Source: an uncultured Nitrospiraceae bacterium (GTDB taxonomy: Bacteria > Nitrospirota > Nitrospiria > Nitrospirales > Nitrospiraceae). From it: a stretch of DNA of 64,000 nucleotides. Of this stretch, positions 18,421 through 46,835 are shown in pieces. The stretch spans positions 416,001-480,000 of the forward strand of contig CAWJWJ010000002.1 of NCBI GenBank assembly GCA_963846575.1. Direction: 5' to 3'. Under the pieces are notes generated by a model. The model saw only the letters and a program-made list of their open reading frames with translations. It was not told the origin of the DNA and made no database searches. Within the stretch, counting starts at the first letter, position 1, and each line of letters begins with the position of its first letter. A program made the translations under genes and the position numbers.

Positions 18421-18496
18421 GGGGGGCTAGCTCAGTTGGGAGAGCACTACGTTCGCAACGTAGGGGTCGGGGGTTCAACTCCCCTGCCCTCCACCA
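18421..18496 (+). tRNA. tRNA-Ala(CGC)
   Basis: 76 nt; acceptor stem GGGGGGC/GCCCTCC with G3:U70; anticodon arm CTACG-TTCGCAA-CGTAG; GGTTCAA T-loop; encoded CCA. Confidence 0.96.
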
Positions 18497-20159
18497 CTTT
18501 CGTTGATGACTTCAACGCCTGTCAGTAGACGATCGAATGTACCCGTGGCCGTGAAACGATAGCCTCGTTTCCCGCCTTTCTCAACGGGCTCGCACACAAT
18601 ATGTCCATCTAAAAGCTTCCTGAGCATTTGGCGGGCAAGAGGAATCTGTCTGGCAAACAGGGCAGGGATGTCTCCCACACGATTTCTTAGTTCCTTGGCC
18701 AGACGATTCTCGTCTACCTGAACCAGTTCGACAAGCTCATCAAGTTTTACTAATTCTGCCAATAACGTCTTCTTCCTTGCTTCCTCATGATGTAGGGACT
18801 CATCTATAGCATCAGTTGCTCTACCGTTTGCGATGTGTTCAACGAGATGATGTAGCCGCGTTTGTATCAAGGAGAGTTCTCGCTCAATAGCGACGCGCTG
18901 ATCAGGAAATTTCTTCTGTTCATTCCTGACTCGTTCGAGAGCTTTGGCTACTGAAGCTTCTAGCACCTGCTCATCTAGCACGTCGTTTATTGCGTGAAGA
19001 ATTGCGGAATCGAGGATATCCTGTCGGACTTCCACACTGTTGGTACACACAGCATGGCCCCGCTTATGATGATAGGCACAGCGATATGCGATTCGTGTGT
19101 AATGCTGTTTGGAGGTTCGCTTGATTGCCACGATTGACCCGCCGCAGGTGACACATTTTGCAATGCCGCTGAGCAAATAAGTAGACCTTAAATCCTCGCC
19201 TGTCGGTCGCGAAATGAGACGGCCACTTTTCTCTCGAAGGTACGCGCATTTGTTACTCAACCTGCGCGCTTCGACCTTTTCCCACAGCGTCTCGGAGATA
19301 ATCTTCAATTCTGGCGCTTCTAATCGAAGCCATTCCGACTGCGGACGTTTTCGTTGCTTACGGGTTCCACCCAGCTGGACGGTTTGAGTCCGATTCCAGA
19401 GCACCACTCCACGATAAAGATCACGGTGCAAAATGTCTCGAAGGGCTGTCGGGCACCACCCAAGAACCCCGCCGTGCGGAGGTGCGATGTGATCTTCATT
19501 TAATGCTTTTGCGATGCGGGCGAGCCCAAGCCCTGACGCGTACATTTCGAAAATCGGACGACGACCTTAGTTTGTTCAGTATTAATTCTTCTCACCACGT
19601 GTTGACGATGTGGTGTCCCGTCCGCGTTCGCCTGGTTACCGTATATGGGGACATTGTCATAGCCAAACACCTTATTCCCCGTTACGTGAAGAGCCTTGGC
19701 TTTTCGAAACATGGCGTCATAGGTTCTTTGACTCGCTTTCTCTCGCTCCATTTCTGCCGAGAAATTCGTGAGGCTGAGCATCACTTTGTCGAGAGCATTG
19801 TCGAGCTTTCGTTCTTGATTGGTCAGATAGAAGAATATGCGCACGCCACTGTCGATAATTTGCTTAAAGGCATAACTTGATTGAATGGCCTCGCGGCCCA
19901 ATCGAGACTCTTCGCTCATAATAAGAACTTGGAAAGCTGGACGTGGCTTAAGAGCATTCATCAGTCGAAGAAAGCCCTGTCGCTTTAAGAATTCCGCGCC
20001 AGACACGCCGTCATCAGAGTAAATATGCTCCTTAGAAACGGTCCAGCCCTTTTGTTCGGCATAGGCAATACCGTGTTCTATTTGACGAGTAACCGACTTC
20101 TCTTCATCACTGAACCCTACCTGTTCAGTCGACTTTCTACAGTAGATGGCCGCAATCAT
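18475..20159 (-). pseudogene. Large serine recombinase (resolvase + recombinase + zinc-ribbon domains), split by a frameshift near 19553
   Basis: ORF 19500-20159: IYCRKST, DDGVSG, SRLGRE, FGYD; ORF 18475-19545: IAKALNE, LLSGIAKCVTCGG...YRC; one extra base restores VVRIFEMYASG. Confidence 0.9.
18485..18496 (+). repeat. attL core (tRNA 3' end) TGCCCTCCACCA
   Basis: Identical 12-mer at 46824-46835; adjacent to recombinase. Confidence 0.8.
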
Positions 20160-20232
20160 CCCACTGCTCCTTTCAATTCCAAGTCGCCGCGTTTCGGCGA
20201 GGGAACATGAATGTTCCGACGCTGAGGGATTA

Positions 20233-20487
20233 TTAGCTTTCAGTGGACGGTGTCAACGCTAATTTACGGTTGGTTCGGGAAGGGGAATCGACCGTAAACA
20301 CTGTATGTGCTTGAAGATCCAAGAGAAGTAAATCATCAAGCAATGAAGAAATGTCATCGCGGAGTTGAGCGGAAATAGCTGTCTTGTCGGTTGGTGTCCA
20401 TTGTATTGATTTCTCTCTCACATGGATCGACCTAGCGTTACATCGTTTCATATAAATGCTCTTCAGATTTAATTGGACCGGTGCCAT
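20233..20487 (-). CDS. Small hypothetical protein upstream of recombinase (possible directionality factor)
   Basis: Co-oriented ORF immediately 5' of the recombinase; function is a guess, start uncertain. Confidence 0.3.
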   Translation of the reverse strand: MAPVQLNLKSIYMKRCNARSIHVREKSIQWTPTDKTAISAQLRDDISSLLDDLLLLDLQAHTVFTVDSPSRTNRKLALTPSTES

Positions 20488-20713
20488 TTACAAGATCCCA
20501 GTTCCATCGACTGAACCGTCTGCCGGTCCAACGGCTCCACGCCAAGAGTAAATCTCAGTAGGTGCGACCCGCGGCCGGGGAGCAGGGGATCAGGCCTTCC
20601 CGTCCGTTCGTCCAGGCCTGCCCGCTGCGAGAGCCTCGTGCCGCCTCTTCTTCTACGCCCCACCCTCGGTGTGTGAAGGGTGGGGCTACATAGCAATGAA
20701 GAAGGAGGCGCAC

Positions 20714-21217
20714 ATGTCTGTTGAAGGCTCTCTCGGTTCCTCGAACGGTGGACGGCCACTGAGCCAAAAATCCCGCTACGGCGTGCCTCGGTACCGCGTC
20801 ACGCTCGTGCGCGAGGGCCGTGCCATTCCCGCGACCGAGTCCATCACGACGTCGGAGGGCGCTGCGGAGCTCCTGCGTCCCTTGTTCGCCGGTCTGGACC
20901 GGGAGCAGTTCCTGTTCTGTGGCCTGGATGCGAAGCATCGGCTTATCGGCATCAATGTGGTGTCCACCGGGTCGCTCACCCTGGCCATTGTCCATCCCCG
21001 CGAAGTCTTCAAACCGCTGATCCTGATGAATGCCGGGGCCTGGATTTGTTCGCACAACCACCCCTCTGGCGATACCATGCCCAGCCCGGAAGATCGCGTC
21101 CTGACCACACGGCTGCGCGAAGCGGCTGATCTGTTCGGCATTCCGCTGCTGGACCATCTCATCTTGGCTGACGACCGCTATTACAGCTTCGCCGACCAGG
21201 GCTGGTTCGGCGCCTAG
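20714..21217 (+). CDS. RadC-like JAB-domain protein (UPF0758 C-terminal domain only)
   Basis: DREQF, VHPREVFK, HNHPSGDTMPSPED, LLDHLI; AAGGAGG RBS. Confidence 0.93.
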   Translation: MSVEGSLGSSNGGRPLSQKSRYGVPRYRVTLVREGRAIPATESITTSEGAAELLRPLFAGLDREQFLFCGLDAKHRLIGINVVSTGSLTLAIVHPREVFKPLILMNAGAWICSHNHPSGDTMPSPEDRVLTTRLREAADLFGIPLLDHLILADDRYYSFADQGWFGA

Positions 21218-21342
21218 CGGAGCAGCCGCACCACCCAGGTCGCTCCGGCGGCTACCAAGGCGAGCCCGATCGCTGCCGTGCCCCAGGCGACCAGGTCGGT
21301 GGCCAACGCGTTCCCGATGTTTTGAATCTGTTGCGCCGTCAT
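21214..21342 (-). CDS. Signal-less coat-like protein (42 aa), paralogue of the major coat
   Basis: Manual ORF MTAQQIQNIGNALATDLVAWGTAAIGLALVAAGATWVVRLLR; AAAGGAG RBS; amphipathic N-terminus + TM + basic tail. Confidence 0.7.
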   Translation of the reverse strand: MTAQQIQNIGNALATDLVAWGTAAIGLALVAAGATWVVRLLR

Positions 21343-21389
21343 CACGAAACTCCTTTGCCGCCACCCTCTCGATGTTGTCGTAGGATGCG

Positions 21390-21423
21390 AGAAAAGGAGG
21401 CAGGCTGCTGCTCAGCCCGCCTC
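21390..21423 (-). terminator. Intrinsic terminator after major coat gene
   Basis: Minus strand GAGGCGGGCTG-AGCAG-CAGCCTGCCTC-CTTTTCT. Confidence 0.7.
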
Positions 21424-21435
21424 GATGGGCTCTTC

Positions 21436-21648
21436 CTAGCCCACAATCGCGCGCACGCGCTTAAAGGCGTAGATCGCCAGGGCCACGCCGATCAGGGCCG
21501 TAGCCCACAAGAGCAGATCAGCCCGCACTGTGGCCACATCCGCCGACACCGGAAACAACTGCGCCTGTGACAGCGCCGGGATGCCCAGGGCGAACACGAA
21601 CGCCATGAGCACGCCCCCAAGCCCCTTGACCCAACCCCATCCCTTCAT
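21436..21648 (-). CDS. Inovirus major coat protein (pVIII-like) with signal peptide
   Basis: MKGWG...ALSQA|QLFPVSADVATVRADLLLWATALIGVALAIYAFKRVRAIVG; AGGAGGT RBS; followed by terminator. Confidence 0.85.
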   Translation of the reverse strand: MKGWGWVKGLGGVLMAFVFALGIPALSQAQLFPVSADVATVRADLLLWATALIGVALAIYAFKRVRAIVG

Positions 21649-21738
21649 ACTGCACCTCCTTGTGCTGTGGTGGTCACGTCCACCCACGCCGCCGGAATGC
21701 TCGCCGGCGGACGAGTGCCTCAAGGCCTTGAGGCAGAA

Positions 21739-21822
21739 TCAGTGCTGAGGCAGAATCAGCTTGATAATCAGACCGACGGCAAACCCGCCGAGCCAGAAGA
21801 TCGCTGTGAAGTAGGTCATCAT
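21739..21822 (-). CDS. Tiny TM protein (pVII/pIX-like, 27 aa)
   Basis: MMTYFTAIFWLGGFAVGLIIKLILPQH; starts immediately after zot stop. Confidence 0.55.
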   Translation of the reverse strand: MMTYFTAIFWLGGFAVGLIIKLILPQH

Positions 21823-21823
21823 C

Positions 21824-22831
21824 TCAATCGCCTGCTGGTCCATAGAACACTCCTTCGCCGATCAGCTGCATCGATCCCTCTTCATAGACTTCCGACACGA
21901 CGACGCCATACCGGCCGGTGATCTGAGCCGCCGTGAGGATCTCGCCACTGTCCAACAGATAGCGCCAGCCTTGACGGTTCGCCGACATGCCGGCGCCGCC
22001 AAGAATGCGCACGGGGCGTTTGGGAAGTGACGGTGTGGCCACGGAGGGAGCGAACGCGCCCAAGGGATTCACCAGACTGCCCGGCGTCGATGCAGACGGC
22101 AGCGAAGACAATGTCGCGGTGCTACTCACGCTCGTTGCCGGCACTCCCTTGGTGCTGCTTAATGACGACCAGGGCCGCCAAACCATGAGGGTGAGAGCAA
22201 ACAGCCCTGCCGCAATGCCGATCGCCACCCGCGCCGACTTGAAGACCGTATGGCTGCGTTTCTCTTCCCGGATCGCCGCCGACGCGTAACTGGAATAGTA
22301 GGCGTAGATCGCCGGCGAATAGGTCCCGACGAAGGCCCGAATGACGTCATGGTCTTCGGGGTTCCCGCGCACCTTGCCCTGATATTTTTTCGCCAAGCCC
22401 ACGAAGGCGAGTTTTCGAAACTTCACCGTGGCTTCGATGAGCCGGGTCACACCTTGGGACATCTGGCGGAAATCCTGGCTCATGAGCAGAATGTCCACGC
22501 CGTAATGCCGATGGGTTTCGAGCCAGCGGAGGAGACCTGGCTCCACCTTCTGCATCGACCGAAACACGGTCTGGGCTTCGTCGATAATCACCGCCGAGCC
22601 CGGTTCGACATGTGGAAAGGCCTGCAGGACTTCCACGGAATCCTTCCAGATCGTGATCTGCTGTTCGAGGACGGAAAGTTCGATGCCCGTGAACAAGGCC
22701 AGCCGATCCAGATAGATCCCATCGACCGCGATGTAGAGTCGCCGGCCTTGCCGCACCCAGGGCAAGAATTTCTCGCAGATCGCGTGGTAGGACTTGCCCG
22801 AGCCCGGCACGCCTTCATACAGTTCAATCAT
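21824..22831 (-). CDS. zot: Zot/pI-like morphogenesis ATPase
   Basis: MIELYEGVPGSGKS (Walker A), IIDEAQ (Walker B), HRHYGVDILLMSQ, C-terminal TM. Confidence 0.93.
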   Translation of the reverse strand: MIELYEGVPGSGKSYHAICEKFLPWVRQGRRLYIAVDGIYLDRLALFTGIELSVLEQQITIWKDSVEVLQAFPHVEPGSAVIIDEAQTVFRSMQKVEPGLLRWLETHRHYGVDILLMSQDFRQMSQGVTRLIEATVKFRKLAFVGLAKKYQGKVRGNPEDHDVIRAFVGTYSPAIYAYYSSYASAAIREEKRSHTVFKSARVAIGIAAGLFALTLMVWRPWSSLSSTKGVPATSVSSTATLSSLPSASTPGSLVNPLGAFAPSVATPSLPKRPVRILGGAGMSANRQGWRYLLDSGEILTAAQITGRYGVVVSEVYEEGSMQLIGEGVFYGPAGD

Positions 22832-22914
22832 CGGAGACTCCTCAGATACACCCAGATCCACAGGGCTAAGACGACGGTCCAGGCATAGGCCCACCCGATC
22901 ACGAGCTGGTTCAT
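22828..22914 (-). CDS. Tiny TM protein (28 aa)
   Basis: MNQLVIGWAYAWTVVLALWIWVYLRSLR; ATGA overlaps at both ends. Confidence 0.55.
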   Translation of the reverse strand: MNQLVIGWAYAWTVVLALWIWVYLRSLR

Positions 22915-23186
22915 GAACCCCACCGGACAAATGGAATAGTCTGTAAGATGAATCGGGTCCCCATGGCGCTCGCCAGGATGGCCAGCGCCTGACTCATGCC
23001 CGTCGCGCCCAGCACCCACGCGTACTGATCGGGGATGACCGGCAGCGTGAGGCCTGCCGTCCCCACGGTCGCGAGCGTGCTGTCCGCCGCGGAGAGCAGC
23101 GAATCCCAGATGCTCAATCCCCAATCGGTGAGGGAGAAGAAGAACTCCTGCAGCCAGCAATAGATCAGGGTCAGAATGGCGGTCAT
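22911..23186 (-). CDS. pVI-like (DUF2523-type) minor coat protein
   Basis: 91 aa hydrophobic, ...LGATGMSQALAILASAMGTRFILQTIPF, directly upstream of zot. Confidence 0.75.
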   Translation of the reverse strand: MTAILTLIYCWLQEFFFSLTDWGLSIWDSLLSAADSTLATVGTAGLTLPVIPDQYAWVLGATGMSQALAILASAMGTRFILQTIPFVRWGS

Positions 23187-23819
23187 GAGCTGGTCTGGCC
23201 TCCCACAAAGATGATGCGGTACGCCGCAATGGAAGCCGCCGCAATGACCAATGTCCGGAGCACAGTGAAGAACCAGGCCCATTGATTGAAGTCGACGTGC
23301 TGACTGCCGAAGAAGGCGGAGGGCAGCGCAATCACCGGCAACGTCGACCGCACAGAGGGGAACATTGGTCGTGCTGAATTGGATGCTCGCATTGAGGTAA
23401 TTCGCATTGGCCGGGGTGCTGGTCCCGAGACCCGGAAAGGTCTGGATGCCGGCGTTGCTGCTCGTGACTTGCCAGCCGCCGGGTGTTGAAGCCGCCGATT
23501 TAATGGCCGACAGGTCGGATTGCGAATAGTACATCTGAGCCAGGACTAAGCCGGCCCCCACGCCGAGTGCGGCCCACCCAACCGGACCGGCGACCATGCG
23601 GACGGCTACAGAGGCGGCCGAGGGCGCCACTGCAGCGGAGGCCACCTGACCCGCCAAGGCGGACCGTTGCGCGGCGAGATAGGCAATGCGTTCGGCTTGC
23701 GCGACCACCCTGGAATACTGCGTGGCGGTTTGTGCGAGGGATTCTCCAGGTGCCAGACAGAACGAGACCAAAAGGCCCCAGATAAGTGAGAGATAACTGG
23801 TGAGTGAAAGCAGTTTCAC
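23183..23819 (-). pseudogene. pIII/TspB-like adsorption protein, apparently internally deleted and frameshifted near 23350
   Basis: Signal peptide + GPVGWAALG N-terminus in one frame; C-terminal anchor ...VDFNQWAWFFTVLRTLVIAAASIAAYRIIF in another; short for a pIII. Confidence 0.65.
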
Positions 23820-23890
23820 AATCGTCCAACTCCAAGGCCGGTGAGGAAGGCCAGTAACAGGACCGCCACGAGAATAATGGTGAGATCCAC
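23816..23890 (-). CDS. Tiny TM protein (pVII-like, 24 aa)
   Basis: MDLTIILVAVLLLAFLTGLGVGRL; GGAGG RBS; GTGA overlap with pIII start. Confidence 0.55.
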   Translation of the reverse strand: MDLTIILVAVLLLAFLTGLGVGRL

Positions 23891-23910
23891 CGGCCTTCCT
23901 CCCTCTGCCG

Positions 23911-24174
23911 TTATTTCAAGACTTCCAGCCCAGAGAGGTCGAAGAAGACCCGTCCGGTCTGCTCGAACTTCCGGACTTCGATCGAGACTTTCGCTTGCTT
24001 GCCCTCGGCTTGCTTGCAGGCTTCGATTAAGGGCATCTGATCGTCCGGAATCCCCAATCGAAGCACCCCCGGATCTCGGCCCTTCACATAGAGATCCACC
24101 GATCGGTAGACTTTCCCTTCCCGACTCCTCCGCTCCACATAGCCCTGGACCGCTCCCTCCGCTTTGACTTGCAT
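23911..24174 (-). CDS. ssDNA-binding protein (pV/RstB-like position)
   Basis: 87 aa beta-rich, RRSREGKVY loop, between Rep and virion genes; AGGGGG RBS. Confidence 0.65.
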   Translation of the reverse strand: MQVKAEGAVQGYVERRSREGKVYRSVDLYVKGRDPGVLRLGIPDDQMPLIEACKQAEGKQAKVSIEVRKFEQTGRVFFDLSGLEVLK

Positions 24175-24374
24175 CGTCGTCCCCTCCTGAATAATGGATT
24201 GAATTCGGATCAGCCAAGCGCCTGACCCACACGCCCCGGCCTTCAGACCGGGCTTTTGGTCGAAAGCAGAATTCCGAATCGCATTCCCGACAGCTCAGAT
24301 ACAAGGCGCCCTGTTCCCACTTGCACCGACAGCCTCTCGCGCCACATCCCGGACACATGCGTCGCCAGTAGCCG

Positions 24375-25367
24375 TTATGAAACTCTAAGGACATAGGGCG
24401 TGCCTTTTCGTCGTTCCTTCAGCAGGGCATAGTGTTTCTGCTTCCATTTCTTGGTGCCGGCATAGATCAACTCCTTCAGGAACTGATCACCTCGGCAGGC
24501 CACCACCACGGCCAGCATCGAGGCAACGGATTGGGCGAGCCAGGCGGCCACGTCATCTAGCCGTTGCTGAATCCGTTCAACCACCAGGCGGCAGCGCTTG
24601 AAGCCTTCGGTCAGGGCGTGCCACCACCCCAACAGCGGCGCCCGATATTTTTCGTAGGATTCCGCTTCCCGCGTCGTCTCGCGGAAATCCACATAGGAGC
24701 GGAGCACCCCCACCATAAAGGCCCGCCAGTCTTCGGCATCGAGCGTGAGCAGAGCTTTGGCGCAGGCTTGGGCCCGGTCTTGTTTGAATTCCATTTCCCA
24801 CCGGACTCCATAGGAGGCCGCGTCTTCCCGGCCTTCGACTCTGCAGTTCCAGTCGTTTGTCATAGACCCGCAGCATGCTTTGGCTTTCCCGGCTGCCAAA
24901 GTAGAGGGTTTCACCGGTCCGGACCCCGTCGCGTGATTGGAGGCTTGGATCACTTTGAATTGCTTAGACCGACTCACGACCTGTCCGGCTTCCACGGCTT
25001 GCCGGACGGTCTCAACTGCGACCGTGGCCTCCCGGTCGTCCAGGGCCACGTCGGTCCGAGTCACATGGCCCTTCTGCGCGAAGATCCAGGCCAGGACCGT
25101 CTTCAGCTTGATCTCATCCCACTGGGAGATAATTCCGGCCGACAGATCCACGTGCACTTCCTTCGGACTGCGAGGCGCACCCGTCCCCAGTTTCCCCACG
25201 CCGGTCTTGCCCTGCGTCATGAGCCGTGCGACGGGATAGCCGCGAAAGCCCGTCTCACTCTGGAACCAATCGCCCCCAATCGTCTTGATGACCTCGTCCA
25301 CGTCAGCCTTCGGCAGTGTGAACGCCAGCCAATCAATCGTGTGAGTGAATCCGCCAGAACCCGTCAT
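24375..25367 (-). pseudogene. Rep_trans-family rolling-circle replication initiator with two compensating frameshifts
   Basis: IDWLAFT, TRTDVALD, RWEMEFK in frame; TGETLYFGSRESQSMLRVYDK present only in an alternative frame (~24834-24933). Confidence 0.85.
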
Positions 25368-25396
25368 TTTTTGCTCCTTGGCTTGCGTGCGATAGA

Positions 25397-25423
25397 CGCC
25401 CCCGTCTTACCAAGTCGGGGGCG
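25397..25423 (-). promoter_or_regulatory. Putative double-strand origin / nick-site hairpin
   Basis: Minus strand CGCCCCCG-ACTTGGTAAGA-CGGGGGCG, 30 bp upstream of rep; resembles C-run/TAA/G-run nick sites of Rep_trans/MOBT enzymes. Confidence 0.6.
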
Positions 25424-25676
25424 GGGTCGGCTGCGCGCGCCGCCGGCTGGCGCCGCCTTGCGCGCTGCGCGATCCCGTCTTTCTCCCGGCTTCGACAAAA
25501 GACGGACCATTCCCTTTGGCCTGCAGCGCTTCCTTGACGCGTTCAAGATCGAAACGGACGAACCGACAGAAGCGATCAACCGGAATCTCGCCTTTGCGGT
25601 AAGCGCGGCGGATCGACTTCGGGCTGACTTTGAGGACGGCGGCCAACTCATCGACGGTTAACCATGTTTGTTCCAT
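25407..25676 (-). CDS. Excisionase-like helix-turn-helix protein (HTH_17)
   Basis: WLTVDELAAVLKVSPKSIRRAYRKGEIP...VRFD; AAAGGAG RBS. Confidence 0.85.
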   Translation of the reverse strand: MEQTWLTVDELAAVLKVSPKSIRRAYRKGEIPVDRFCRFVRFDLERVKEALQAKGNGPSFVEAGRKTGSRSAQGGASRRRAQPTPPPTW

Positions 25677-25766
25677 CACGTCTCCTTTGTGAGTGCAGCA
25701 CACGATGTATGGCGGAACCATACGCATCTGCGTGCGGTGGTGAAAAGAGGCCGGTTCATGGACCTG

Positions 25767-25793
25767 GGGACACCAGGGGACACTGAGGGACAC
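25767..25793. repeat. Three GGGACAC direct repeats at 10-bp period
   Basis: Copies at 25767, 25777, 25787 upstream of the HTH gene. Confidence 0.75.
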
Positions 25794-26432
25794 TACGGCA
25801 TTCCATTCCAAGCCGTGATCAGAGCAGGAATGGGAGTCGAAGGAATCTATGCAAAAAGATTGTCAGGAGGATGAGTCGCTACTGAAGAATGACGAAAGGC
25901 CACGCTGGGCTTGATGGTTCGACGGCTGGTACGAATAAGGCCTATGGAAATTTATAGGGCAAATGGAACTGAGATGAGGCGAATCATCTTTAGCGCCCCG
26001 ATCAAAATACGGCGCAATCATGCAAAAAATAGTCATCGGGCCAAATTACTTTGAATAGGGCCAAATGGCTCTGGCCTCAACAGGGCGAATTCGAGCCTCG
26101 TGCTTTGGGCAATAGAGAGAAGTCACAGTGGACGGTGTTGCAAGAAAGTAATGGTTGATGGCCTTCCAACGAGCGAAGACTGGAAAACTGTAGAGCCCGA
26201 GATAATCGACTTCACCTTCGGGTGAGTGTGAAGTGGGTATGGTCCTGGCCGACCAATGCGGCTGAAGAAAATAATCACGACTACAGTGGGCTTGCAAGCG
26301 ATTAAGTTCGCACATGCGGTACAAGAGGTTCTTATCTCTCAGCCTTAAACAGAAACCCCCCTACTGCACGTTTGGCACTTCGCGGCAGTTGGGAGCACTC
26401 GATCAGCAGTGGCAGGAAGACTCTGTGAAACT

Positions 26433-26570
26433 TTAGCCCGGCTGAATAGCAGTGAATTCCAGAACGAAGGTTGTCCCTTCGTCTTCTGAACTGTGCACGC
26501 GAATTCTCCCTTTGTGATCCTCCACGACGGCTTGCACGAGGGTCAGCCCGAGGCCCCAGCCTGGAAGTTG
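26433..26570 (-). pseudogene. Histidine kinase HATPase C-terminal fragment
   Basis: GWGLGLTLVQAVVEDHKGRIRVHSSEDEGTTFVLEF with no upstream kinase domain. Confidence 0.7.
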
Positions 26571-27120
26571 TGAATGGGAAGTCCTCGTCGGCCTAGAATA
26601 ACCGCTTAAAAAATCTAATTGACCAGAGAGTTCAAGAAGCGTAATCCGCGTCACAACGGGAATCGTGCACCTTGATATTGAGCAAGAAGCGTCATCAGGA
26701 AGCTTGGTTTAGCATCGCCTGCGGTGAGAGTTCGGCAATCGTATGGCCGCAAAAACTGCCTGAAACGTTTCAAGTGGACGACAGAAGAGGGCCACTAGAT
26801 GCACCGAGCAACCCATCGTTATCAAAAACTCCTTTGGCAAATCCCATGGGATGTCTTTGAATGAATCGATAACACTATTGCGGAGGCGCCGAAGGCGGGA
26901 TGTGATTCACACACCCTAGACGGGCTTAAATATCTAGAAACCCTCTCATCAGCTGTCCAAGATCGCAGAGGTTCTCTCCGAAGCGACCGGACGATCGCGA
27001 AGAATTCGATGAGGATTTGGACGATGAGACCGCGATTGAAATCCGCCAGCCTGCTCCATGGCATCAAGAAAGATAACAAAGGTGACTGTTCCTGGGAGAC
27101 CGGGTCGTCGGAAGGTGCCG

Positions 27121-27300: not shown

Positions 27301-27664
27301 CGTGGCGTCGGGATCAATGGCAATTGGAGAGGGCTGCTTCGAAACATAAAAATAAGATGCTCAAGTACCGCTGCCTGGCCAAATCTCCGGAAAGCGCTAT
27401 ACTTCTACTATGCTCGCGCCGGAATTCATCCTCTTCCTGATGCTCGATGTCATGGTGCTGACGTGGACCGTCTTGAAGGTCTTGGTCAACCGTATGATTG
27501 ATTCGGATCCCCATCTCCCCCCTCGTGTCACAGCACAACCCTCAGAGCCTTCTGATCATCTTCGGCGAGTGGCCTAACTTGTAGGCCCGTGCATCATCCT
27601 CGTTCCAATCTATCCTGCTGACTAAATATATACGCAACATGTCTCCAGGGCGACATGTCCCTTC

Positions 27665-28192
27665 CACTCCCCGCGGATTAATATTGAGGAGGCCATTCCC
27701 GTCTATGGACCAGGTCGACGCACACCTAGAGATCCTTCTGCAAGACTTTATGCGACTGTGTCCCGAGGACGCGCCCTTAGAGGCAGACGACTGGACCGGC
27801 CTGCATGAAATTTATGTGTTTATCTACGAGCAGGGGATTCAGTGCGTACCTTCGACCTTTCGAGATTTCTTGATTCAGCACGGCTATTCCGAGAATAAGG
27901 CGAGAGCCGTGAGTCAGCACTATAGTCAGTACCTTCACCAGCTGAAGGTGCGTGGTCACGATCCCCAGACCTCTGTCCAGAAGCTGGACGAGACGCCAAC
28001 GCAAACTGGCGCTGAGGCTCACTCTCAGAATAAAGGGGCGACGGATGTGTCGGTTCCAATTTAACCGTAAGAATCATGATTCCGTTGTCGTCGAGGGGAG
28101 CCGGGTCGACATAGTGGACGGCTATATCACAGTCGTGGATGCGCAAGACCGGCCTCTTGCGACGTTTGACCCAGCCGAGCTGTCGAGTTGGT
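27665..28192 (+). repeat. ~530-bp direct repeat, copy 1
   Basis: Aligns by eye with 44214-44742 (offset ~16550) with scattered substitutions. Confidence 0.92.
27705..28064 (+). CDS. Hypothetical protein (family A, copy 1)
   Basis: GAGGAGG RBS; frame conserved in copy at 44255. Confidence 0.65.
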   Translation: MDQVDAHLEILLQDFMRLCPEDAPLEADDWTGLHEIYVFIYEQGIQCVPSTFRDFLIQHGYSENKARAVSQHYSQYLHQLKVRGHDPQTSVQKLDETPTQTGAEAHSQNKGATDVSVPI

Positions 28193-28221: not shown

Positions 28222-28300
28222 TTCTTTTTCGTACGCCGGTCAGCAGTCGGCCCCCGATGATAATGGTTGACCCATGGACGCAAAAGGGGTGTTTGTCTCA

Positions 28301-29839: not shown

Positions 29840-30352
29840 ATGAGAACCATATCCCGCTATTGGGGCTATCGCGCCACTGGGTTACTGCTGGTTCTTGTCG
29901 TCGCGCCGAGCCTCGCACATGCGGAGTATATCGGGACAGTGGTGGGCGTGATCGACGGCGATTCCATCCGAGTCATCCACGATGGCCAGGCCGAGCAGAT
30001 TCGCCTCCTCGGGATCGACTGCCCCGAGAAACGTCAGCCATTCGGCACACGGGCCAGGGAATATACCTCTGAGCTGGCCTTTGGGCAGGATGTCACGGTG
30101 TACGGAGACAAGCGAGATCGCTATGGCTGACGGCTGGCCGAAGTCCTCCTCCCCGACGGCCGTAGCCTGAATCAGGAACTGGTCAAGGCTGGTTTCGCCT
30201 GGTGGTTTCGAAAGTATTCGAAGAATCTACGGTTGGGAGAGTTGGAACGGCAGGCGAGAATAGCGAAGAGAGGCTTATGGGTTGATCCGCGGCCGGAGCC
30301 ACCCTGGGAGTGGCAGAACAGCATTAAGCAGTCCAACGATGGGAATCAATAG
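29840..30352 (+). pseudogene. Thermonuclease (SNase-family), internal TGA at 30128-30130
   Basis: VIDGDSI, IRLLGIDCPE, DRYG*RLA, LVKAGFAW, KRGLW...PPWEW. Confidence 0.88.
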
Positions 30353-37066: not shown

Positions 37067-37091
37067 GTGGGTGCTATCCTTCCGGTGGCGT

Positions 37092-39958: not shown

Positions 39959-40412
39959 AGCCGTCGCTAGAAGTATGAAGTTTCTCCTGGTTGAGGACGA
40001 TGACGACCACGCCACGATCGTCATCCGATGTCTACGAAGAGAGAATGGTCTCAATACCGTTGACCGCGCCACCGATGGCGTCGAAGCAATCCAATATTTG
40101 AAGGGGGAGGCGCCCTTTCAGGACAAATCGCTGCCAGACGTGATCTTGCTGGACCTGAAGCTGCCCAAAAAAGACGGCCATGAAGTGTTGGCGGAAATCA
40201 AACGGGACGAACGCCTACGGGTGATTCCCGTCGTCGTACTAAGCACCTCCGACGCCGAAAGTGATCGCATGCAAGCGTATCATCTGCATGCCAACAGCTA
40301 CCTGGTGAAGCCACTCAGCGGGGAGTACTTCAAAAAGATGATTCAAGATATGAGTCTGTACTGGGGCAGTTGGAACCGATCCCCCAACATTGCATTGACG
40401 CCTAGTGCCTAA
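39948..40412 (+). CDS. Rcp1-like single-domain response regulator
   Basis: LLVEDD, ILLDLKLPKKDG, PVVVLSTS, ANSYLVKP. Confidence 0.92.
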   Translation: MPTEAVARSMKFLLVEDDDDHATIVIRCLRRENGLNTVDRATDGVEAIQYLKGEAPFQDKSLPDVILLDLKLPKKDGHEVLAEIKRDERLRVIPVVVLSTSDAESDRMQAYHLHANSYLVKPLSGEYFKKMIQDMSLYWGSWNRSPNIALTPSA

Positions 40413-42543
40413 CGCCACTCAGCTCAGCGTCCTCTTGATTGAGGACAACGACGAGCACGCGACCATTATTGCTCGACACTTGAGGCAAGTCGAAGATGCC
40501 CGCGTGGTCGTCTCGCGGGCCTCGTGTCTGGCCGATGGGCTGAGTCTGCTCGCGGCGAAGCGATTCGATGCCCTTCTCTTGGACCTCCAACTGCCCGATA
40601 GCCAGATAGACGAGACCTTGCGCTGCACGCTGAAGTATACCGTCGAGGTCCCGATCATCGTTATTTCCACCATTGAAGAACGCGCCCTCGCCAAGCAAGC
40701 GTTGAAGGAAGGGGCGCAAGCCTACCTCTGCAAAGCCGATCTCTCGTCGGAGCTGCTCTACCGAGCCATCGATTATGCCATTGAGCGGCAAGTGACCGAC
40801 GCCCGCCTGCGCGCAGAGGTTTCGCGGAAACAGGTTCTGTTCGATCTCAGTCAACAGGCCTTATATGAGAAGGACGTGGTCTGCCTCTTTGACAGGGCAG
40901 TGTCCACATTGTCGCATGCATTGCACGTTAAGTTCGTCATCTTGATGGAGTTTCTCCCAGACGAAAACCGGTTTCTCTTACGCGCGGGCACGGGGTGGAA
41001 AGACGGCCTTGTTGGACGGGAGAAAGTTGGGGCCGAATTGGACTCGCTGGCGGGCTTCACGCTTCGCGCCAGCCGTCCGACGATTCCAGGGAATCTGAGC
41101 ACCCTCGAACCGGTGATCATTAGTGATCTGACGACGGAAAGACGTTTTTCTCCCGCCCCGTTCCTGCCCGATCACGGCATCATCAGCGGCCTCAGTGTCG
41201 TTATCCATGGCAAGGACCAGGCGCATCCCTATGGCATCTTGGGGGTGCATTCGGCAACCCGTCGTGAGTTCACAGCCGATGAAGCCCAGCTTCTCCAATC
41301 GGCGGCGAACGTGTTGGCGGCGGCGCTCTTGCGAGTACAGCTCGAAGGGGACCTCATAGAATTGAACGCCGACTTAGAGCGCCGGGTGGCGAAACGCACC
41401 CATGACCTGGAGCAATCTCAGACGCTTCTGCGCGGATTAGCCACCAAGCTGAACCTGGCTGAACAGCGCGAACGCAAGCGGGTGGCGACGGAATTACACG
41501 ACCATCTGGCCCAAATGCTCGTACTCGGACGCCTAAAGCTGGGAGAGGCAAAGCAAAGCGTATTATTGGACTCCGAGTGCCAGGCCTTGCTGGGTGAAGC
41601 GGACAAGGCGCTGAGGGACTCGCTATCCTACGCTCGCACACTCGTTGCCAGTCTCAGCCCCTCTGTTCTGTATGAGTTCGGCTTACCGACAGCGATTAAG
41701 TGGCTGGCCGACCAGATGCAGCAGTACAACCTAACGGTCATTCTCGAATTACCGGATGGGCCTCCCATATCCCTGCCCGAAGACCAGGCCGTGCTGGTCT
41801 TTCAGTCGGTGCGTGAACTACTCATGAACAGCGCGAAACATTCCCAGTCTTCTCAGGCCAGAGTTATCCTGCAATATCGACAGGAGGCATTACGGGTCGA
41901 AGTGCGGGATCAGGGCGTGGGCTTCGATGTAGCGGCATTGACGCAAGCGGGGCTCTCACCTAAATTCGGTCTTTTCAGCATCCGTGAGCGCATGACGGCG
42001 TTGGGTGGGTCGTTTACGATTCAGTCTGAGGACGGACATGGAACGCTCGCCGTGTTGACCTTGCCCATGCCACGAGAAGTGCCTCACCCATCGCCTGAGC
42101 TTGAGCCCGCAGTCCAACGTAGGGCGCTCATCGCTCAGTTGGCGTCACAGGCCGTCCAAGCGGACACCGGAGTGCAAGTGTTGCTGGTGGATGACCATGC
42201 CATGATACGGCAAGGCTTACGCAGCGTACTTGAGAGGTATTCGGACATTTGTGTGGTCGGGGAAGCGTGCGATGGCGTGGAAGCGATTGCCCAAGCCGAC
42301 CGGCTGTGCCCGTCGGTCGTCGTGATGGACATCAACATGCCAAACATGAATGGCATTGACGCGACGAGCATGATCAAGACCCGTCACCCCGAAATGGTGG
42401 TCATCGGATTATCAGTCAACGCCTCGCCTGAGAATGACCACGCCATGCGGGGAGCAGGGGCGGTGCTGCTGCTCACCAAAGAGGCGGCTGTGGAACAACT
42501 CCACGCATGCATTCGAGAAGCCATGCATGGATCCAGACCCTAA
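40405..42543 (+). CDS. Hybrid kinase REC-GAF-HisKA_3-HATPase-REC
   Basis: N-terminal REC; GAF; ERKRVATELHDHLAQ; FGLFSIRER; C-terminal NarL-type REC. Confidence 0.9.
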   Translation: MPNATQLSVLLIEDNDEHATIIARHLRQVEDARVVVSRASCLADGLSLLAAKRFDALLLDLQLPDSQIDETLRCTLKYTVEVPIIVISTIEERALAKQALKEGAQAYLCKADLSSELLYRAIDYAIERQVTDARLRAEVSRKQVLFDLSQQALYEKDVVCLFDRAVSTLSHALHVKFVILMEFLPDENRFLLRAGTGWKDGLVGREKVGAELDSLAGFTLRASRPTIPGNLSTLEPVIISDLTTERRFSPAPFLPDHGIISGLSVVIHGKDQAHPYGILGVHSATRREFTADEAQLLQSAANVLAAALLRVQLEGDLIELNADLERRVAKRTHDLEQSQTLLRGLATKLNLAEQRERKRVATELHDHLAQMLVLGRLKLGEAKQSVLLDSECQALLGEADKALRDSLSYARTLVASLSPSVLYEFGLPTAIKWLADQMQQYNLTVILELPDGPPISLPEDQAVLVFQSVRELLMNSAKHSQSSQARVILQYRQEALRVEVRDQGVGFDVAALTQAGLSPKFGLFSIRERMTALGGSFTIQSEDGHGTLAVLTLPMPREVPHPSPELEPAVQRRALIAQLASQAVQADTGVQVLLVDDHAMIRQGLRSVLERYSDICVVGEACDGVEAIAQADRLCPSVVVMDINMPNMNGIDATSMIKTRHPEMVVIGLSVNASPENDHAMRGAGAVLLLTKEAAVEQLHACIREAMHGSRP

Positions 42544-42652
42544 GGCAGGCTGCACCCGTTCCATTCAGCAGGGACGGGGGAATCGCAGATTAGCATAGAG
42601 AGAGTGGGCAACACTCTCTCTATTGCCACGGAGTCAAAGCGGGCGGAGGTGT

Positions 42653-42988
42653 ATGTCCTCGATTCTTCTCATCGAAGACGATGTCAGTCTGCGAGAATTG
42701 ATACATATCACCTTGAGGACGGCGGGATACGACGTCATCGATGCGGTGAACGGCCGACTCGGACTCAAGGCATTTCGGAAGTCGCCGACCGACCTGTATA
42801 TGCCAGAGCGAGACGGTTTGGAAGTGCGGCGCTCCCATCGCAGCGTTAAGGTCCTCGCGATCTCGGGGGCCTCAGGGACCATCGGATATTTTCCACTCGC
42901 GCAGTCCTTAGGCGCCGTGGCTGTCCTTCAAAAGCCATTTTCTCCTTCAGTGTTATTAAAGGTCGTCGCGGAGCTGCTGAGTCATTGA
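42653..42988 (+). pseudogene. Degenerate response regulator with in-frame deletions
   Basis: ...SPTDL|YMPERDGLEV|RRS lacks the beta3 strand (VITDI) that carries the phospho-Asp. Confidence 0.6.
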
Positions 42989-43083
42989 TGGCTCAGGGTC
43001 GGAGCCAGTCGATTCCAGAAAAGCGAGCCTCCAGAACACGCGCGCACATCGGCGAATTGTGTTGCCAACTGAGGCTAAATAAG

Positions 43084-43431
43084 ATGATGGAAAATCCGTT
43101 GTCCCCCCACGCCCCTCTCAACCACTGCCCGCCCCCACTTGTCCCGATCATGCTGGAAGTCGTTGCGGCTCACAATGCCGCCATGCCAAGTGTGGGCGAA
43201 GGCATCCACGAGAAGACGGTGGAGATGGCCGGCAGCGACTACGATCAGCTGCTGGTGCTGTACTACACTGCATTCGGGACGCCCTTCTCCTGTAAAGACG
43301 CACAGCACGGGGTCACTCATACTTTATCCTTCGCCGATAAACCAGCCGTGGTACAGGAAACTCTGACTAGCACGACTCGCCGCTATACCGTACAGGTGAA
43401 GTTGCTGAAGCTGCCGGCCGTGCCCTGGTAG
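43084..43431 (+). CDS. Hypothetical protein
   Basis: Protein-like ORF; no recognisable motif. Confidence 0.4.
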   Translation: MMENPLSPHAPLNHCPPPLVPIMLEVVAAHNAAMPSVGEGIHEKTVEMAGSDYDQLLVLYYTAFGTPFSCKDAQHGVTHTLSFADKPAVVQETLTSTTRRYTVQVKLLKLPAVPW

Positions 43432-43858
43432 CCCCTGAATGCCGAAAGGCACTCGAGTGGTCGATTCAATCCCGTATGGGACTGTTCTCCTTTTGGATCA
43501 GCGTACTGGCGATGGTGTGCTTGAACCATGCGATGCGCACGTGGACGAGACTCACGCATCCCTGTGCGCACGTCGCTGGGCTCGGTGATCGGCCTTCGCG
43601 GTTGCCTGGGGATGTTGACCCCTCGTCAGTCGGCATGGTGGGCTGAGAACCATCCCAGAACGAGGACGCTACCTGGCCATGCGTGCGATGATTCTGTGAG
43701 CTCTGTCGTGGTTCGCGCAGAAGTTTGGTCCATACACGCGAGAAAGACGTCATCTGCACCAGCACCAGGCCCTAGGACGCCTTGATCCTCCCAATCGTAG
43801 AGCCCATTCCATCTAACGCGGAATAGCCGTCCTAGCGGCTTTGTCCTAGAGTCGCGCC

Positions 43859-44230
43859 ATGCAAATATGCTGCTCGCCGAACGAGGATGAAGGCCTTCCC
43901 TTCTCTTGTACGATCTCCATCACCGATGAAGCCGAGCCCATGGATGGCACGATCTGGGCCTTCTACCCGCATCGCTGTCTCCTTGAAAGCGGTCGCGGCC
44001 TCACTCTCGGAATGGGCGTCTCCCAAACGTTGGACCTCTCTGAGATCGCGCGGGTCCGGCTCGGGCCTGGGATCGTCACATGGGTCTGCGACAAGGCATG
44101 CGGCATTGAGTTTCCACACAGTTCGGCATCTACCACCTTTGAGCGGCTACCATGCGCAGGTGAGGTCTCGGCCGTCGATCACGCCCATGTCTCCAGGGTC
44201 CACCTGTGCCCAACACTCCCCGCGGATTAA
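43859..44230 (+). CDS. Degenerate PilZ-like protein
   Basis: DGTIW...CLLES...LGMGV...IVTWV...CGIEF beta-barrel pattern; c-di-GMP motifs absent. Confidence 0.45.
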   Translation: MQICCSPNEDEGLPFSCTISITDEAEPMDGTIWAFYPHRCLLESGRGLTLGMGVSQTLDLSEIARVRLGPGIVTWVCDKACGIEFPHSSASTTFERLPCAGEVSAVDHAHVSRVHLCPTLPAD

Positions 44231-44742
44231 CTTTGAGGAGACCAGTCACCGTCTATGGAGCAAGTCGACGCACATCTAAAGATCCTTCTGCAAGACTTCG
44301 TGCGACTGTGTCCCGAGGACACGCCCTTAGAAGGAGACGACTGGGCCGGCCTGCATGAAATTTGTGTGTTTATCCACGAGCAAGAGATTCAGTGCGCACC
44401 TTCGACCTTTCGGGATTTCTTGATCCAGCATGGCTGTTCGGAGAACAAGGCCACGGCCGTGAGTCAGTACTATAGTCACTACCTTCACCAGCTGAAGGTG
44501 CGTGGTCACGATCCCCAGACCTCTGTCCAGAAGCTGGACGAGACGCCAACGCAAACTGGCGCTGAGGCTCACGCTCACAACCAAGGAGCGACGGATGTGT
44601 CGGTTCCAATTTAATCGGAAGAATCATGAGTCAGTTGTCGTCAAGGGAAGACGGGTCGACATAGTGGACGGTTGCATCACAGTCGTGGATGCACAAGACC
44701 GGCCTCTTGCAACGTTTGACCCAGCCGAGCTGTCGAGTTGGT
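44214..44742 (+). repeat. ~530-bp direct repeat, copy 2
   Basis: Aligns with 27665-28192. Confidence 0.92.
44255..44614 (+). CDS. Hypothetical protein (family A, copy 2)
   Basis: Near-identical to 27705-28064; GAGGAG RBS. Confidence 0.65.
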   Translation: MEQVDAHLKILLQDFVRLCPEDTPLEGDDWAGLHEICVFIHEQEIQCAPSTFRDFLIQHGCSENKATAVSQYYSHYLHQLKVRGHDPQTSVQKLDETPTQTGAEAHAHNQGATDVSVPI

Positions 44743-44777
44743 GGATGGTGCCCGAGACCCGAACGCCCTCCTCATGA
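44595..44777 (+). CDS. Small hypothetical beta-rich protein (copy 2)
   Basis: AAGGAG RBS; paralogue of 28045-28221. Confidence 0.5.
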   Translation: MCRFQFNRKNHESVVVKGRRVDIVDGCITVVDAQDRPLATFDPAELSSWWMVPETRTPSS

Positions 44778-45278
44778 TTATCTGCTATCTCACCAGGTCG
44801 CATCCTCTTTTCAGGTCGTCTGGACCACAAATTGAATAGCAGAAAAAAAGGACAGCCGCAGTGTCCATGTGGCTCAGCCGGTTTCAAGGCATCGATTAAA
44901 CCAAAGTATGCGGTGAACGACTTATCGCTCAATTTCTGGAGCCTTTGCCCTCCTTTCGGAATACAGCGAGTGGTATGGTCTTAGTGCTGGGCTCTTCACA
45001 TAGCGCGGCAGTCAGGCCAGAAGCACGCTTTGAAGTCCCGTCTATACACGGACTGAGTCACACAATTATTTCTTCGACGACCGCATTCTCTTGCTAGTCT
45101 CCGGTGGGAACTAATTGGCCGTCATTGCCATGATAGCAAGTCGTCGCCCGTGGGTCACTCCGCCTTCCAAATGCAGGCCATCCTTCAAATCTTTGCACAG
45201 TACACCTAGGTGCCCTCCCGCCTTTGCGGTACGTCCTCTGGGGCATGGCAAAGATGCGAGGTTGGGTTATTCTTCCTC

Positions 45279-45632
45279 ATGGACAGGACGGCTACCCTAG
45301 GAGAACAAAGTGTTGCCTCCATGATTGAGATCCCTTGCCGAGTTGACTATCGCCCGACCAACGCCCAGCAATTTTGCGAATGGACCGGCCGAGTCGCTCG
45401 GCTGTCTGCTACCGAATGCCGGATCGTCGCTGCCCATGTACCTCAGCCCGGCGCCTGGCGGGAGCTCCGGATCTATCTGCGCGGACATGCCTGGCCAATC
45501 AAGGTCCCCCAGGCAGAGGTGGGGTGGAGTCACTGGAGGGACTTTACGGTGGGATTTCTTCATTTCTCGAGGCAGGAGCAGGACCAGCTCGAAGGCTCTC
45601 TCAGAGCCGCCTCGGTCCTAGTCGCGAATTGA
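45279..45632 (+). CDS. PilZ-like protein
   Basis: IPCRVDY...GRVARLSATECRI...LRIYL...WPIKV..AEVGW....FTVGF. Confidence 0.55.
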   Translation: MDRTATLGEQSVASMIEIPCRVDYRPTNAQQFCEWTGRVARLSATECRIVAAHVPQPGAWRELRIYLRGHAWPIKVPQAEVGWSHWRDFTVGFLHFSRQEQDQLEGSLRAASVLVAN

Positions 45633-45681
45633 CGAGCCATTCCTGCCCCCTGAAGAATCCTCACAAAGGAGTACGACTGGC

Positions 45682-45954
45682 ATGGACAAACACGTTCAGA
45701 GACTGCTGCAGGATCTTGCCCGAACCTGCCCCGCCAGCGATCTTCAACAGAAGGATTGGGAAGAGATGTATGAAATCTGCCTGTACGCGCATTTGAATGC
45801 CATAGTACTGACCCCTCGTAGCCTGAGAGTGTTTCTCCACGAGCAAGGGTGTTCGGTGCAAAAGGCAGCTTTTTTGAGTCACCAAGTTGAACATCTGACC
45901 CGCATCCTGAGCCTCTATGACGAGCGGCGAGCCGAACAAAGCGCCCGAGACTGA
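45682..45954 (+). CDS. Hypothetical protein (family A, divergent copy 3)
   Basis: Shares D.H...LLQD..R.CP...DW...EI...P...R.FL...G.S..KA with copies 1 and 2; AAGGAG RBS. Confidence 0.7.
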   Translation: MDKHVQRLLQDLARTCPASDLQQKDWEEMYEICLYAHLNAIVLTPRSLRVFLHEQGCSVQKAAFLSHQVEHLTRILSLYDERRAEQSARD

Positions 45955-46002
45955 CCACCGGTGCTTCCAGGGATTTCATCGCACATGGAACCGGGAGTGA
46001 GC

Positions 46003-46419
46003 ATGCAACGTCTTGAGAAGGCAACAGTTGACGCGAAACTCCAGATGCTGATCCGGCATTTGGTGCTCAGCTTTCTCCAAGCCACCATTTTTTCTCGTGA
46101 GGTGGAGGAGCAGTACGCTGTCGTGGTCATCGCCCCTTATGACGGGGGCCCTGACAAAGTCATTCAAGTCGAACGGGCGTGGCTGGCCAAGCAGCCGGAC
46201 ACGATGGAAGCATTTCGACGTGTGCTGGAAAATCTGAACTTGCCGACCGTCCTCCAACGGTACGGAAGATACGACCTGGGATCGGCCGATTGGAGCGACC
46301 CCGCCAACGCACGATGGCTGGCGGCCCAAGGCAGCGATGTGGTCTCTCTTGGCCGCCTGCACCTCTCGGGTCCGTCCCTTCCATCGTCTGCCCGTGCAGT
46401 CTTCCCTGCCCGTGCATAA
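46003..46419 (+). CDS. Hypothetical protein
   Basis: GGGAG RBS; protein-like ORF. Confidence 0.45.
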   Translation: MQRLEKATVDAKLQMLIRHLVLSFLQATIFSREVEEQYAVVVIAPYDGGPDKVIQVERAWLAKQPDTMEAFRRVLENLNLPTVLQRYGRYDLGSADWSDPANARWLAAQGSDVVSLGRLHLSGPSLPSSARAVFPARA

Positions 46420-46823
46420 CGAACACCTCCAGGGCACCGGGAACGCTCTGAGATCCGTCCCCCCGACGAAATACTCGATCACCTGATTGGATTCGAGTGA
46501 ACCTATCCTATTTGGCAGGTTTTAGGATATACGATGGATTTTACTTTTGGCCTGGTGCCCTTTGAAGGCGAAGTGCGCGCGCGAATTCTTCACTAGGAAT
46601 GACTTAGATTCATACCCGTGTAGCGCATTCCATTAGGCCCGTTTAAGTGCCTCTCCACTTTGGTCGATGTGTCCCATAGGCTATTCCTTTGCTCGGAGCT
46701 CCCACTGCGGTCGGGGATCTTCACTCAATTTTCACCGGTGTGAATTCCGACCATCCTCACGCAGCCAGAGCGATTCCTTCAATTTTGAAGGAAAGCCCTG
46801 ATACCAACGATGGGCGGATTGCT

Positions 46824-46835
46824 TGCCCTCCACCA
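46824..46835 (+). repeat. attR core TGCCCTCCACCA
   Basis: Exact copy of tRNA-Ala 3' 12 nt; in-frame continuation of the recombinase lies immediately to its left (46757-46823, minus strand). Confidence 0.8.

Follow-up and report, generated by a model that had tools for sequence, protein, structure and literature searches.

A stretch of 64,000 nucleotides from an uncultured Nitrospiraceae bacterium (GenBank assembly GCA_963846575.1, contig CAWJWJ010000002.1, positions 416,001 to 480,000 of the forward strand; hereafter, the window) carries at 18497-46835 what is predicted to be one integrative element, bounded by two copies of a 12-nucleotide (nt) core. This element, with a filamentous-phage-like module and variable cargo, would owe its insertion in the 3′ end of a tRNA-Ala(CGC) gene to its own large serine recombinase. 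The core lies inside the last recombinase codons; the joined (excised or tandem) gene would end in a conserved 21-residue tail, which in the integrated form would be replaced by two residues and a stop codon read from the complement of the tRNA. As a family trait, this tail swap on integration is well supported by the sequence comparisons described below. With its ssrA-like tail end, the episomal integrase would be subject to ClpXP-type proteolysis, which would give the enzyme a short life in the free element and a long one after integration. An integrative element with a self-swapped integrase tail that serves as a degron is the best explanation overall, and we regard its truth as about evenly balanced. 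The features that define the gene and its two ends are the following.

18421-18496, plus strand: tRNA-Ala(CGC), the integration target (ARAGORN; the single tRNA found by this program in the window)
18485-18496, plus strand: core copy at the left attachment site (attL), the last 12 nt of tRNA-Ala(CGC) (12-mer search)
18475-19545, minus strand: large serine recombinase, C-terminal part with Recombinase and Zn_ribbon_recom domains (open reading frame, ORF; Pfam)
19500-20159, minus strand: large serine recombinase, N-terminal part with the Resolvase catalytic domain (ORF; Pfam)
46757-46823, minus strand: detached recombinase tail, 21 codons plus a stop at 46757-46759 (conserved in 34 loci; ratio of nonsynonymous to synonymous polymorphism, pN/pS, 0.35)
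46824-46835, plus strand: core copy at the right attachment site (attR), the displaced tRNA 3′ end (12-mer search; comparison with relatives)

The C-terminal recombinase ORF ends in ...VINESGGGQGS, with its stop codon at 18475-18477 inside tRNA-Ala; its last seven codons and stop are thus the complement of the tRNA 3′ end. This ORF matches PF07508 (62.7 bits) and then the zinc ribbon PF13408 (45.9 bits), both above their cut-offs, and the N-terminal ORF matches PF00239 with an E value of 2.9e-23 (83 bits; cut-off, 23.3). Compared with its intact relatives in genomes G020 and G006, the gene is broken by a 1-nt deletion near 19555. The G020 relative, a 567-amino-acid protein encoded at the same tRNA (L018:13601-15304), ends in ...VINQSGGGQGS. 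A first-pass annotation of this DNA had described a minus-strand recombinase that reads into the tRNA to the same C-terminal peptide, with the attachment core inside its ORF and a frameshift further upstream. ORF and 12-mer searches matched every coordinate, the frameshift corresponds to the 1-nt deletion, and the core lies inside the recombinase ORF in the relatives as well. In hosts with G for A in the T-loop of tRNA-Ala (TTCGACTCC), the integrated form loses its TGA stop (P0006 and P0070; L020-L022 and L029), and the recombinase runs 16 codons deeper into the tRNA complement (...GSRTPDPYVANVVLSQLS). Elsewhere in the genome from which the window comes, a related recombinase fragment (G000:C2:2724231-2724749, L049; 50% identity over 180 amino acids) adjoins tRNA-Glu(TTC) and is a putative scar of another element of the same recombinase family.

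The window contains exactly two copies of the 12-mer TGCCCTCCACCA, one at 18485-18496 and one at 46824-46835, and both are on the plus strand. A second same-strand copy lies downstream of the tRNA in all four element-bearing genomes, at a distance of 16.66 kb in G006, 16.63 kb in G045, 20.55 kb and 23.9 kb (two copies) in G020, and 28.3 kb in the genome of the window. Other copies number zero to two per genome of ~4 Mb in these four, and arithmetic from the copy counts gives a chance expectation of ~0.004 second 12-mers per genome in a same-strand span of 30 kb. The sequence to the left of the second 12-mer is homologous at all five sites (window, G020a, G020b, G006, and G045). Its occurrence in four of four genomes, together with this conserved tail-coding left arm, places the far end above chance. 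Furthermore, the G045 flank to the right of the second 12-mer is identical to what lies after the tRNA at the G021 empty site, and homology between G006 and G045 extends from the tRNA to about the second 12-mer, with none beyond. The second 12-mers, the homologous left arms, the flank match, and this homology limit argue that the island ends are real, and the placement of these ends at the 12-mers in the first-pass annotation is thereby borne out. Since the 12-mer is identical at both ends, the reading frame is kept at any crossover position within it. Positions 46757-46834 translate on the minus strand into GGGQAIRPSLVSGLSFKIEGIALAA and a stop codon, in agreement with the in-frame junction proposed earlier. 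A symmetry scan for the crossover dinucleotide placed a possible centre at the left boundary of the 12-mer in no more than a subset of the elements (scores of 10-13 of 22), and no inverted copy of the recombinase-side arm scored above 15 of 22.

In the empty-site relatives G018, G004, and G021, the homologue of the window from 51748 onward starts ~150-330 nt after the tRNA; the tRNA-downstream spacers of the empty sites are too diverged for alignment with the window at either 46.8 kb or 51.3 kb. The 4.9 kb between attR and the resumed synteny at 51748 (46836-51700) are also missing from the empty-site relatives. This segment contains a PAS/HisKA_3 kinase (47756-49285) and further ORFs; no further core or tail was found in it, and it may be a remnant of an older element. 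The G020 locus (G020:C1:656345-680293; L054, L057, and L058) has two attR-type cores 3.4 kb apart, associated with tail types A and then B, and an internal stretch of ~130 nt homologous to the right end of the G045 element; by its layout, it is a predicted tandem or nested element array.

Read in the recombinase frame, the left arms of the five tRNA-Ala sites specify tails of equal length, each closed by a stop codon.

Window: GGGQAIRPSLVSGLSFKIEGIALAA
G020a: ...AIHPSLVAGFSFKIEGVAVAA
G006: ...PLCPSLAKAVSFKITGVAVAI
G045: ...PLHPSLAQAVSFKISGVAFAA
G020b: ...PLRPSLAKAISFKIAGVAFAA

Further tails were collected with a search pattern built from the window, consisting of CCAACGATGGG, nine free bases, and the 12-mer. 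This pattern forces the residues P-S-L and nothing distal to them, and the P-S-L part of the resulting tail set is thus biased. It retrieved 21 stretches from metagenome contigs and 8 from genome contigs (records titled Nitrospira, Nitrospiraceae, or Nitrospirota, plus one "uncultured bacterium"). No stretch was found in viral contigs, from which the recombinase search returned one distant recombinase alone (22% identity). A second CCAACGATGGG in the window, at 30333, was discarded as a chance match, given that no core follows it and 1.67 matches are expected.

The 34 tRNA-Ala loci hold 21 distinct tails, 19 of which are complete; 17 of these 19 have 22 codons and 13 end in AA. The consensus of the joined form is a 21-residue tail, ...PSL....SFKIEG.A[LVF]AA. 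When codons 9-22 are read in the recombinase frame, pN/pS is 0.35; the two other frames of that strand give 1.17 and 2.77, and the antisense frame that shares the wobble positions gives 0.39, as expected. The position of the stop is fixed while TGA, TAG, and TAA all occur, and the two final Ala residues are specified by four and three different codons. The window and G020a cease to be homologous at the tail stop codon, and no promoter- or terminator-like sites were found overlying the tail.

The recombinase family extends to other tRNAs. Matches to the G020 recombinase at E ≤ 1e-40 occur in 12 of 39 genomes in the genus, and the related loci adjoin tRNA-Ala(CGC), tRNA-Glu(TTC), or tRNA-Ser(GCT), with the recombinase ORFs running into the tRNA. 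At tRNA-Glu, a second copy of the last 12 tRNA nt lies 6.6-30.5 kb downstream (G001, G007, and G045), and G053 has a tandem array; at tRNA-Ser of G053, the second core is 10.2 kb away. The tails at these sites, in the recombinase frame unless stated otherwise and again each followed by a stop, read as follows.

tRNA-Glu: ...FCFSIDVLALAA
tRNA-Glu: ...FCFLIDVLALAA
tRNA-Glu: ...WFFEIDVTVLAA
tRNA-Glu: ...PLSFTIDLLVVAA
tRNA-Glu: ...PLGFTLDLIAMGA
G053, site at 98.59 kb: ...PLSFSIDLLVPAA, in the third frame
G053, site at 86.2 kb: an unrelated peptide with the end EAA
G053, tRNA-Ser: ...EPSLNAALRFELRAVALAA

The ends of the tRNA-Glu tails include ...IDVLALAA, ...IDVTVLAA, and ...IDLLVVAA, and the tRNA-Ser tail ends in ...RAVALAA. 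The tails at the three tRNAs being alike, the pattern [SCF]-F-x-I-[DE]...[LVF]-A-A-stop is kept across recombinases that are 40-55% identical. Rebuilding the joined attachment site (attP) in relatives, the test put forward in the first-pass annotation, bore out that proposal, with extensions that are consistently in frame, conserved, and mostly terminated by -[LVF]AA at tRNA-Ala, tRNA-Glu, and tRNA-Ser. Recombinases that are 99% identical occur in three species, and from such sequences some copies look recently mobile. The G006-type element is present in 20 sequencing runs from 11 studies of wastewater, sludge, and bioreactors.

Public data are dominated by the integrated form. Among the best 120 database homologues of the recombinase, 68 end in GG[GC][QHE]Gx and 13 in GGEGGI, both of which are complements of tRNA ends. 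Natural sequences with the tail attached were nevertheless recovered with a 55-amino-acid fragment of metagenome locus L067 as a query: in the predicted proteins P0122, P0123, and P0124, the zinc ribbon and coiled coil continue unbroken into the tail, reading through GGG[HQ] into ...F[KTE]I[QE]GVALAA and a stop. At L067, L077, and L093, the recombinase C-terminal end and the tail are contiguous and lie beside decayed recombinases; these loci are probably inner junctions of tandem arrays. In L093, from a Nitrospiraceae metagenome-assembled genome, a transposase ORF (2781-3485), which we take to be ISL3-like, interrupts a recombinase remnant that keeps its tail.

The attP junction was also sought, using the 18.7-kb G006 locus, in four of the runs with the G006-type element: three as Logan contig sets and the fourth as raw data, of which ~12% was read. 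No back-joining attP joint was reported from these runs, a result that says nothing either way because contigs drop rare forms. One contig end in run X4 has the attR-side host flank immediately next to the tRNA, which reveals an empty-site allele in the sample; this allele could stem from excision or from a strain mixture. In run X1, a Logan contig exits the 3′ end of the recombinase after 10 nt of the core (L052, position 17724) and continues into 20 letters without a match to either the tRNA or the tail arm. This exit could represent a secondary site, another junction, or an assembly artefact.

We infer that a degron is the most likely role of the tail. The host transfer-messenger RNA tag is ANQELALAA, whose last four residues (ALAA) are also those of the window tail; ClpX is present in the host, with two matches above the curated cut-off; and the mycobacteriophage BPs, discussed below, offers an analogy. 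A broader proposal, which we put forward tentatively and hold in some doubt, is that Nitrospirota harbor a whole family of large serine integrases that act at tRNA 3′ ends, carry the core in their own last codons, and use recombination as a proteolytic timer. Excision would render the integrase ClpXP-labile, blocking re-integration and committing the element to the free state, and integration would yield a stable integrase.

Several observations weigh against an element whose tail is a degron, from the boundaries of the element to the role of the tail. Taken alone, the window is weak evidence, for an open frame of 22 codons is not rare, and the same 12-mer is also found by chance inside a response-regulator gene of one relative. 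The window copy of the element is itself probably inert, judging from its frameshifted recombinase. Six of the 19 complete tRNA-Ala tails lack the AA end (AI, VA twice, AV, one truncated, and one with stop read-through), and one tRNA-Glu tail ends in MGA; these are orphan copies at attR and may therefore be decaying. Neither an AA end nor the tail occurs among the best 120 database homologues, and in run X1 the sequencing depth is even along the element (~36), with no sign of abundant free circles in that run. As to the peptide, the conserved F-x-I-[DE]-G segment exceeds what a ClpX tag needs. In the AlphaFold model of the natural fragment P0123 (95 aligned sequences), a disordered Gly-rich linker (predicted local distance difference test score, pLDDT, <50) is followed by a strand at 252-261 that takes in this segment, modeled with low confidence (pLDDT ~63), and the last three residues remain outside it. 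The model does not discriminate between a degron and a docked strand.

A structural or regulatory role of the tail, which this model would fit, is a serious rival to the degron and may coexist with it. The swap would then be real and the tail a working part of the enzyme, such as a strand docked against the C-terminal hairpin domain or a peptide that autoinhibits or binds a partner, and the enzyme of the free element would differ from that of the integrated one in its activity, its choice of sites, or its directionality. Conservation of [SCF]-F-x-I-[DE] across the subfamilies points in this direction, as do the alternating hydrophobic pattern, which fits a strand, the modeled position of the P0123 strand beside strands 205-212 and 215-225, and the precedent of phage Mx8, in which integration changes the specificity of the integrase without inactivating it (PMC6070905; this and later statements on cited papers refer to the parts of their text that were available to us). 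However, the strand is modeled at a low pLDDT (~63) and few of the aligned sequences carry the tail. Moreover, docking explains neither why Ala-Ala is kept through many synonymous changes nor why the end is identical to that of the host ssrA tag, and we consider a working part rather unlikely. It is more improbable still that the swap is a by-product of the position of attP, with the arm conserved for DNA-level needs (a half-site or binding sites) and a peptide devoid of any role. The most invariant stretch, CCAACGATGGG, does lie 10-20 nt from the core, where a half-site is expected, and it fixes the P-S-L residues, which the search pattern also required; the value of 0.39 in the wobble-sharing antisense frame likewise weakens the pN/pS argument. 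Yet codons 9-22, past the half-site, change mainly synonymously in the recombinase frame, the stop keeps its place while its letters vary, the homology between the window and G020a ends exactly at that stop, and the tRNA-Glu and tRNA-Ser subfamilies keep the peptide pattern on different DNA.

The remaining rival concerns the element rather than its tail: the 12-mer at 46824 would be a chance occurrence, the element would amount to a phage module of ~7.6 kb with its end near 26.08 kb, and what lies beyond would be ordinary chromosomal DNA. This proposal draws on the phage genes, which stop at 25.8 kb, on the homology to the G020 prophage, which ends near 26075, on the cellular look of the cargo, on the chance 12-mer in the gene of a relative, and on the resumption of synteny with relatives at 51.7 kb and not at 46.8 kb. 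It is contradicted by the second 12-mers with conserved, homologous left arms in four of four genomes and by the match of the G045 right flank to an empty site. In addition, there is no core copy at the 26-kb boundary, and in run X1 a single contig of 12.2 kb leads from attR through cargo into the phage module at even depth. We thus rejected the short element as very improbable and retain an element that extends to the distal 12-mer and whose integrase tail would be a degron.

Beyond the recombinase gene, this element comprises a phage module and variable cargo.

20669-21217, plus strand: RadC-like JAB domain gene (PF04002, E = 8e-39)
21824-22930, minus strand: Zot / pI-like filamentous-phage assembly ATPase (PF05707, E = 2.5e-29)
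22911-23819 and 23816-24394, minus strand: two phage-module ORFs without a firm family (DUF2523 weak, below cut-off; homologous to the G020 prophage)
24375-25367, minus strand: Rep_trans rolling-circle replication initiator (PF02486, E = 1e-21)
25407-25811, minus strand: HTH_17 DNA-binding protein (PF12728, E = 6.6e-8)
26035-26075: end of the phage module, the last stretch in common with prophages in three other genomes (homology comparison)
26076-46756: variable cargo with MEDS, response regulators, PhyH, PilZ-EamA, tyrosinase, PAS/GAF histidine kinases, and unknowns (Pfam)

Both PF05707 (Zot) and PF02486 (Rep_trans) score above their cut-offs, inovirus-like signs that agree with the earlier description of the element as filamentous phage-like. 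The Pfam profile search of the element ORFs identified no major coat protein. The HTH_17 protein could be a regulator or an excision factor. The end of the phage module is marked by a conserved pair of TAGGGCC motifs (L018, L052, and L053). In G020, G006, and G045, the last of these makes up the palindrome TAGGGCC-N4-GGCCCTA, whose counterpart in the window is degenerate; the palindrome could serve as an origin, for packaging, or as a site of protein binding. Some 20 kb of the 28.3-kb element is cellular-looking cargo, which varies from element to element. In the window, the cargo includes a direct repeat of ~350 nt (27648-27998 and 44197-44548; 91% identity over 300 nt) that overlaps two ORFs without a Pfam family (27639-28064 and 44255-44614), that is, a duplicated gene.

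The integrase has the same three Pfam domains as the classical large serine integrases of the phiC31, Bxb1, and A118 type. These classical enzymes use protein-coding targets, with minimal identity between their attachment sites, and their attP lies outside the integrase gene. In contrast, the family described here adjoins tRNA-Ala, tRNA-Glu, and tRNA-Ser genes, and serine integrases have been stated not to target tRNA genes (PMC4383910). A serine recombinase acting at a tRNA is nonetheless known from the Ralstonia filamentous phage phiRSM, whose Int (ORF14) uses the 3′ end of tRNA-Ser(UCG) with a 13-nt core (PMC3816273). The two systems share a filamentous-phage-type element with its own serine recombinase, a tRNA 3′ end as the target, and a short core. 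They differ in the enzyme and in the position of attP: phiRSM has a small, resolvase/invertase-like Int and an attP situated between ORF14 and ORF15 (PMC3816273), whereas here a large serine recombinase of ~560 amino acids with Recombinase and zinc-ribbon domains has the core inside its ORF.

An attP inside the gene of a tyrosine integrase has been described for Mx8 and SSV (PMC4383910). As in the element studied here, integration of Mx8 gives its integrase gene (IntP/IntX) a new 3′ end, and the integrase of the prophage differs from that of the virion genome (PMC6070905, PMC4383910). Unlike the present case, the Mx8 enzyme is a tyrosine recombinase, and the effect reported in the available text is on activity or specificity, with no degradation tag; the present element has a large serine recombinase, and the tail that is removed from it has an ssrA-like end. 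In BPs and its relatives (clusters G, N, and P), the repressor and the integrase both carry -LAA-like tags, and integration strips the repressor of its ssrA-like tag, attP lying in the repressor gene (PMC9262239). The likeness lies in an attP inside an ORF and a free form with an ssrA-like end (ALAA in the window). The differences are that in BPs attP cuts the repressor, the tyrosine integrase keeping its tag in both states (PMC9262239), while here the integrase itself would lose the tag through predicted proteolytic control, and no repressor switch was seen. The analogies with BPs (PMC9262239) and Mx8 (PMC6070905, PMC4383910) drawn in the first-pass annotation hold to the extent of the text available. 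Its claim of novelty stands in part: a serine recombinase on a tRNA-integrating filamentous phage is already known from phiRSM (PMC3816273), and a swap of the recombinase's own tail was not found described. Within the available portions of the open-access literature and bioRxiv, we found no serine integrase whose own gene contains attP or that bears a degradation tag, and the only gene ends found there to be swapped by integration belong to tyrosine integrases (Mx8) and to a phage repressor (BPs).

Serine integrases are widely used as genome-engineering tools, and the recombinases of this family target three or more different tRNAs and are predicted to rewrite their own C-terminus at each recombination. 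The recently mobile-looking copies and the 20 runs with the G006-type element mean that material for experiments should be obtainable. For the mapping of islands of this kind, the comparisons suggest a rule, namely that a short conserved ORF with -AA at its end comes before the displaced tRNA end. Should the tail be a degron, the family would have a built-in memory, in which the lifetime of the enzyme reports whether the element is free or integrated, and the principle known from BPs would be extended from a repressor to a recombinase and from tyrosine to serine enzymes. If the timer reading is also true, the control of directionality and commitment would reside in the 3′ end of the integrase gene and not in a separate factor.

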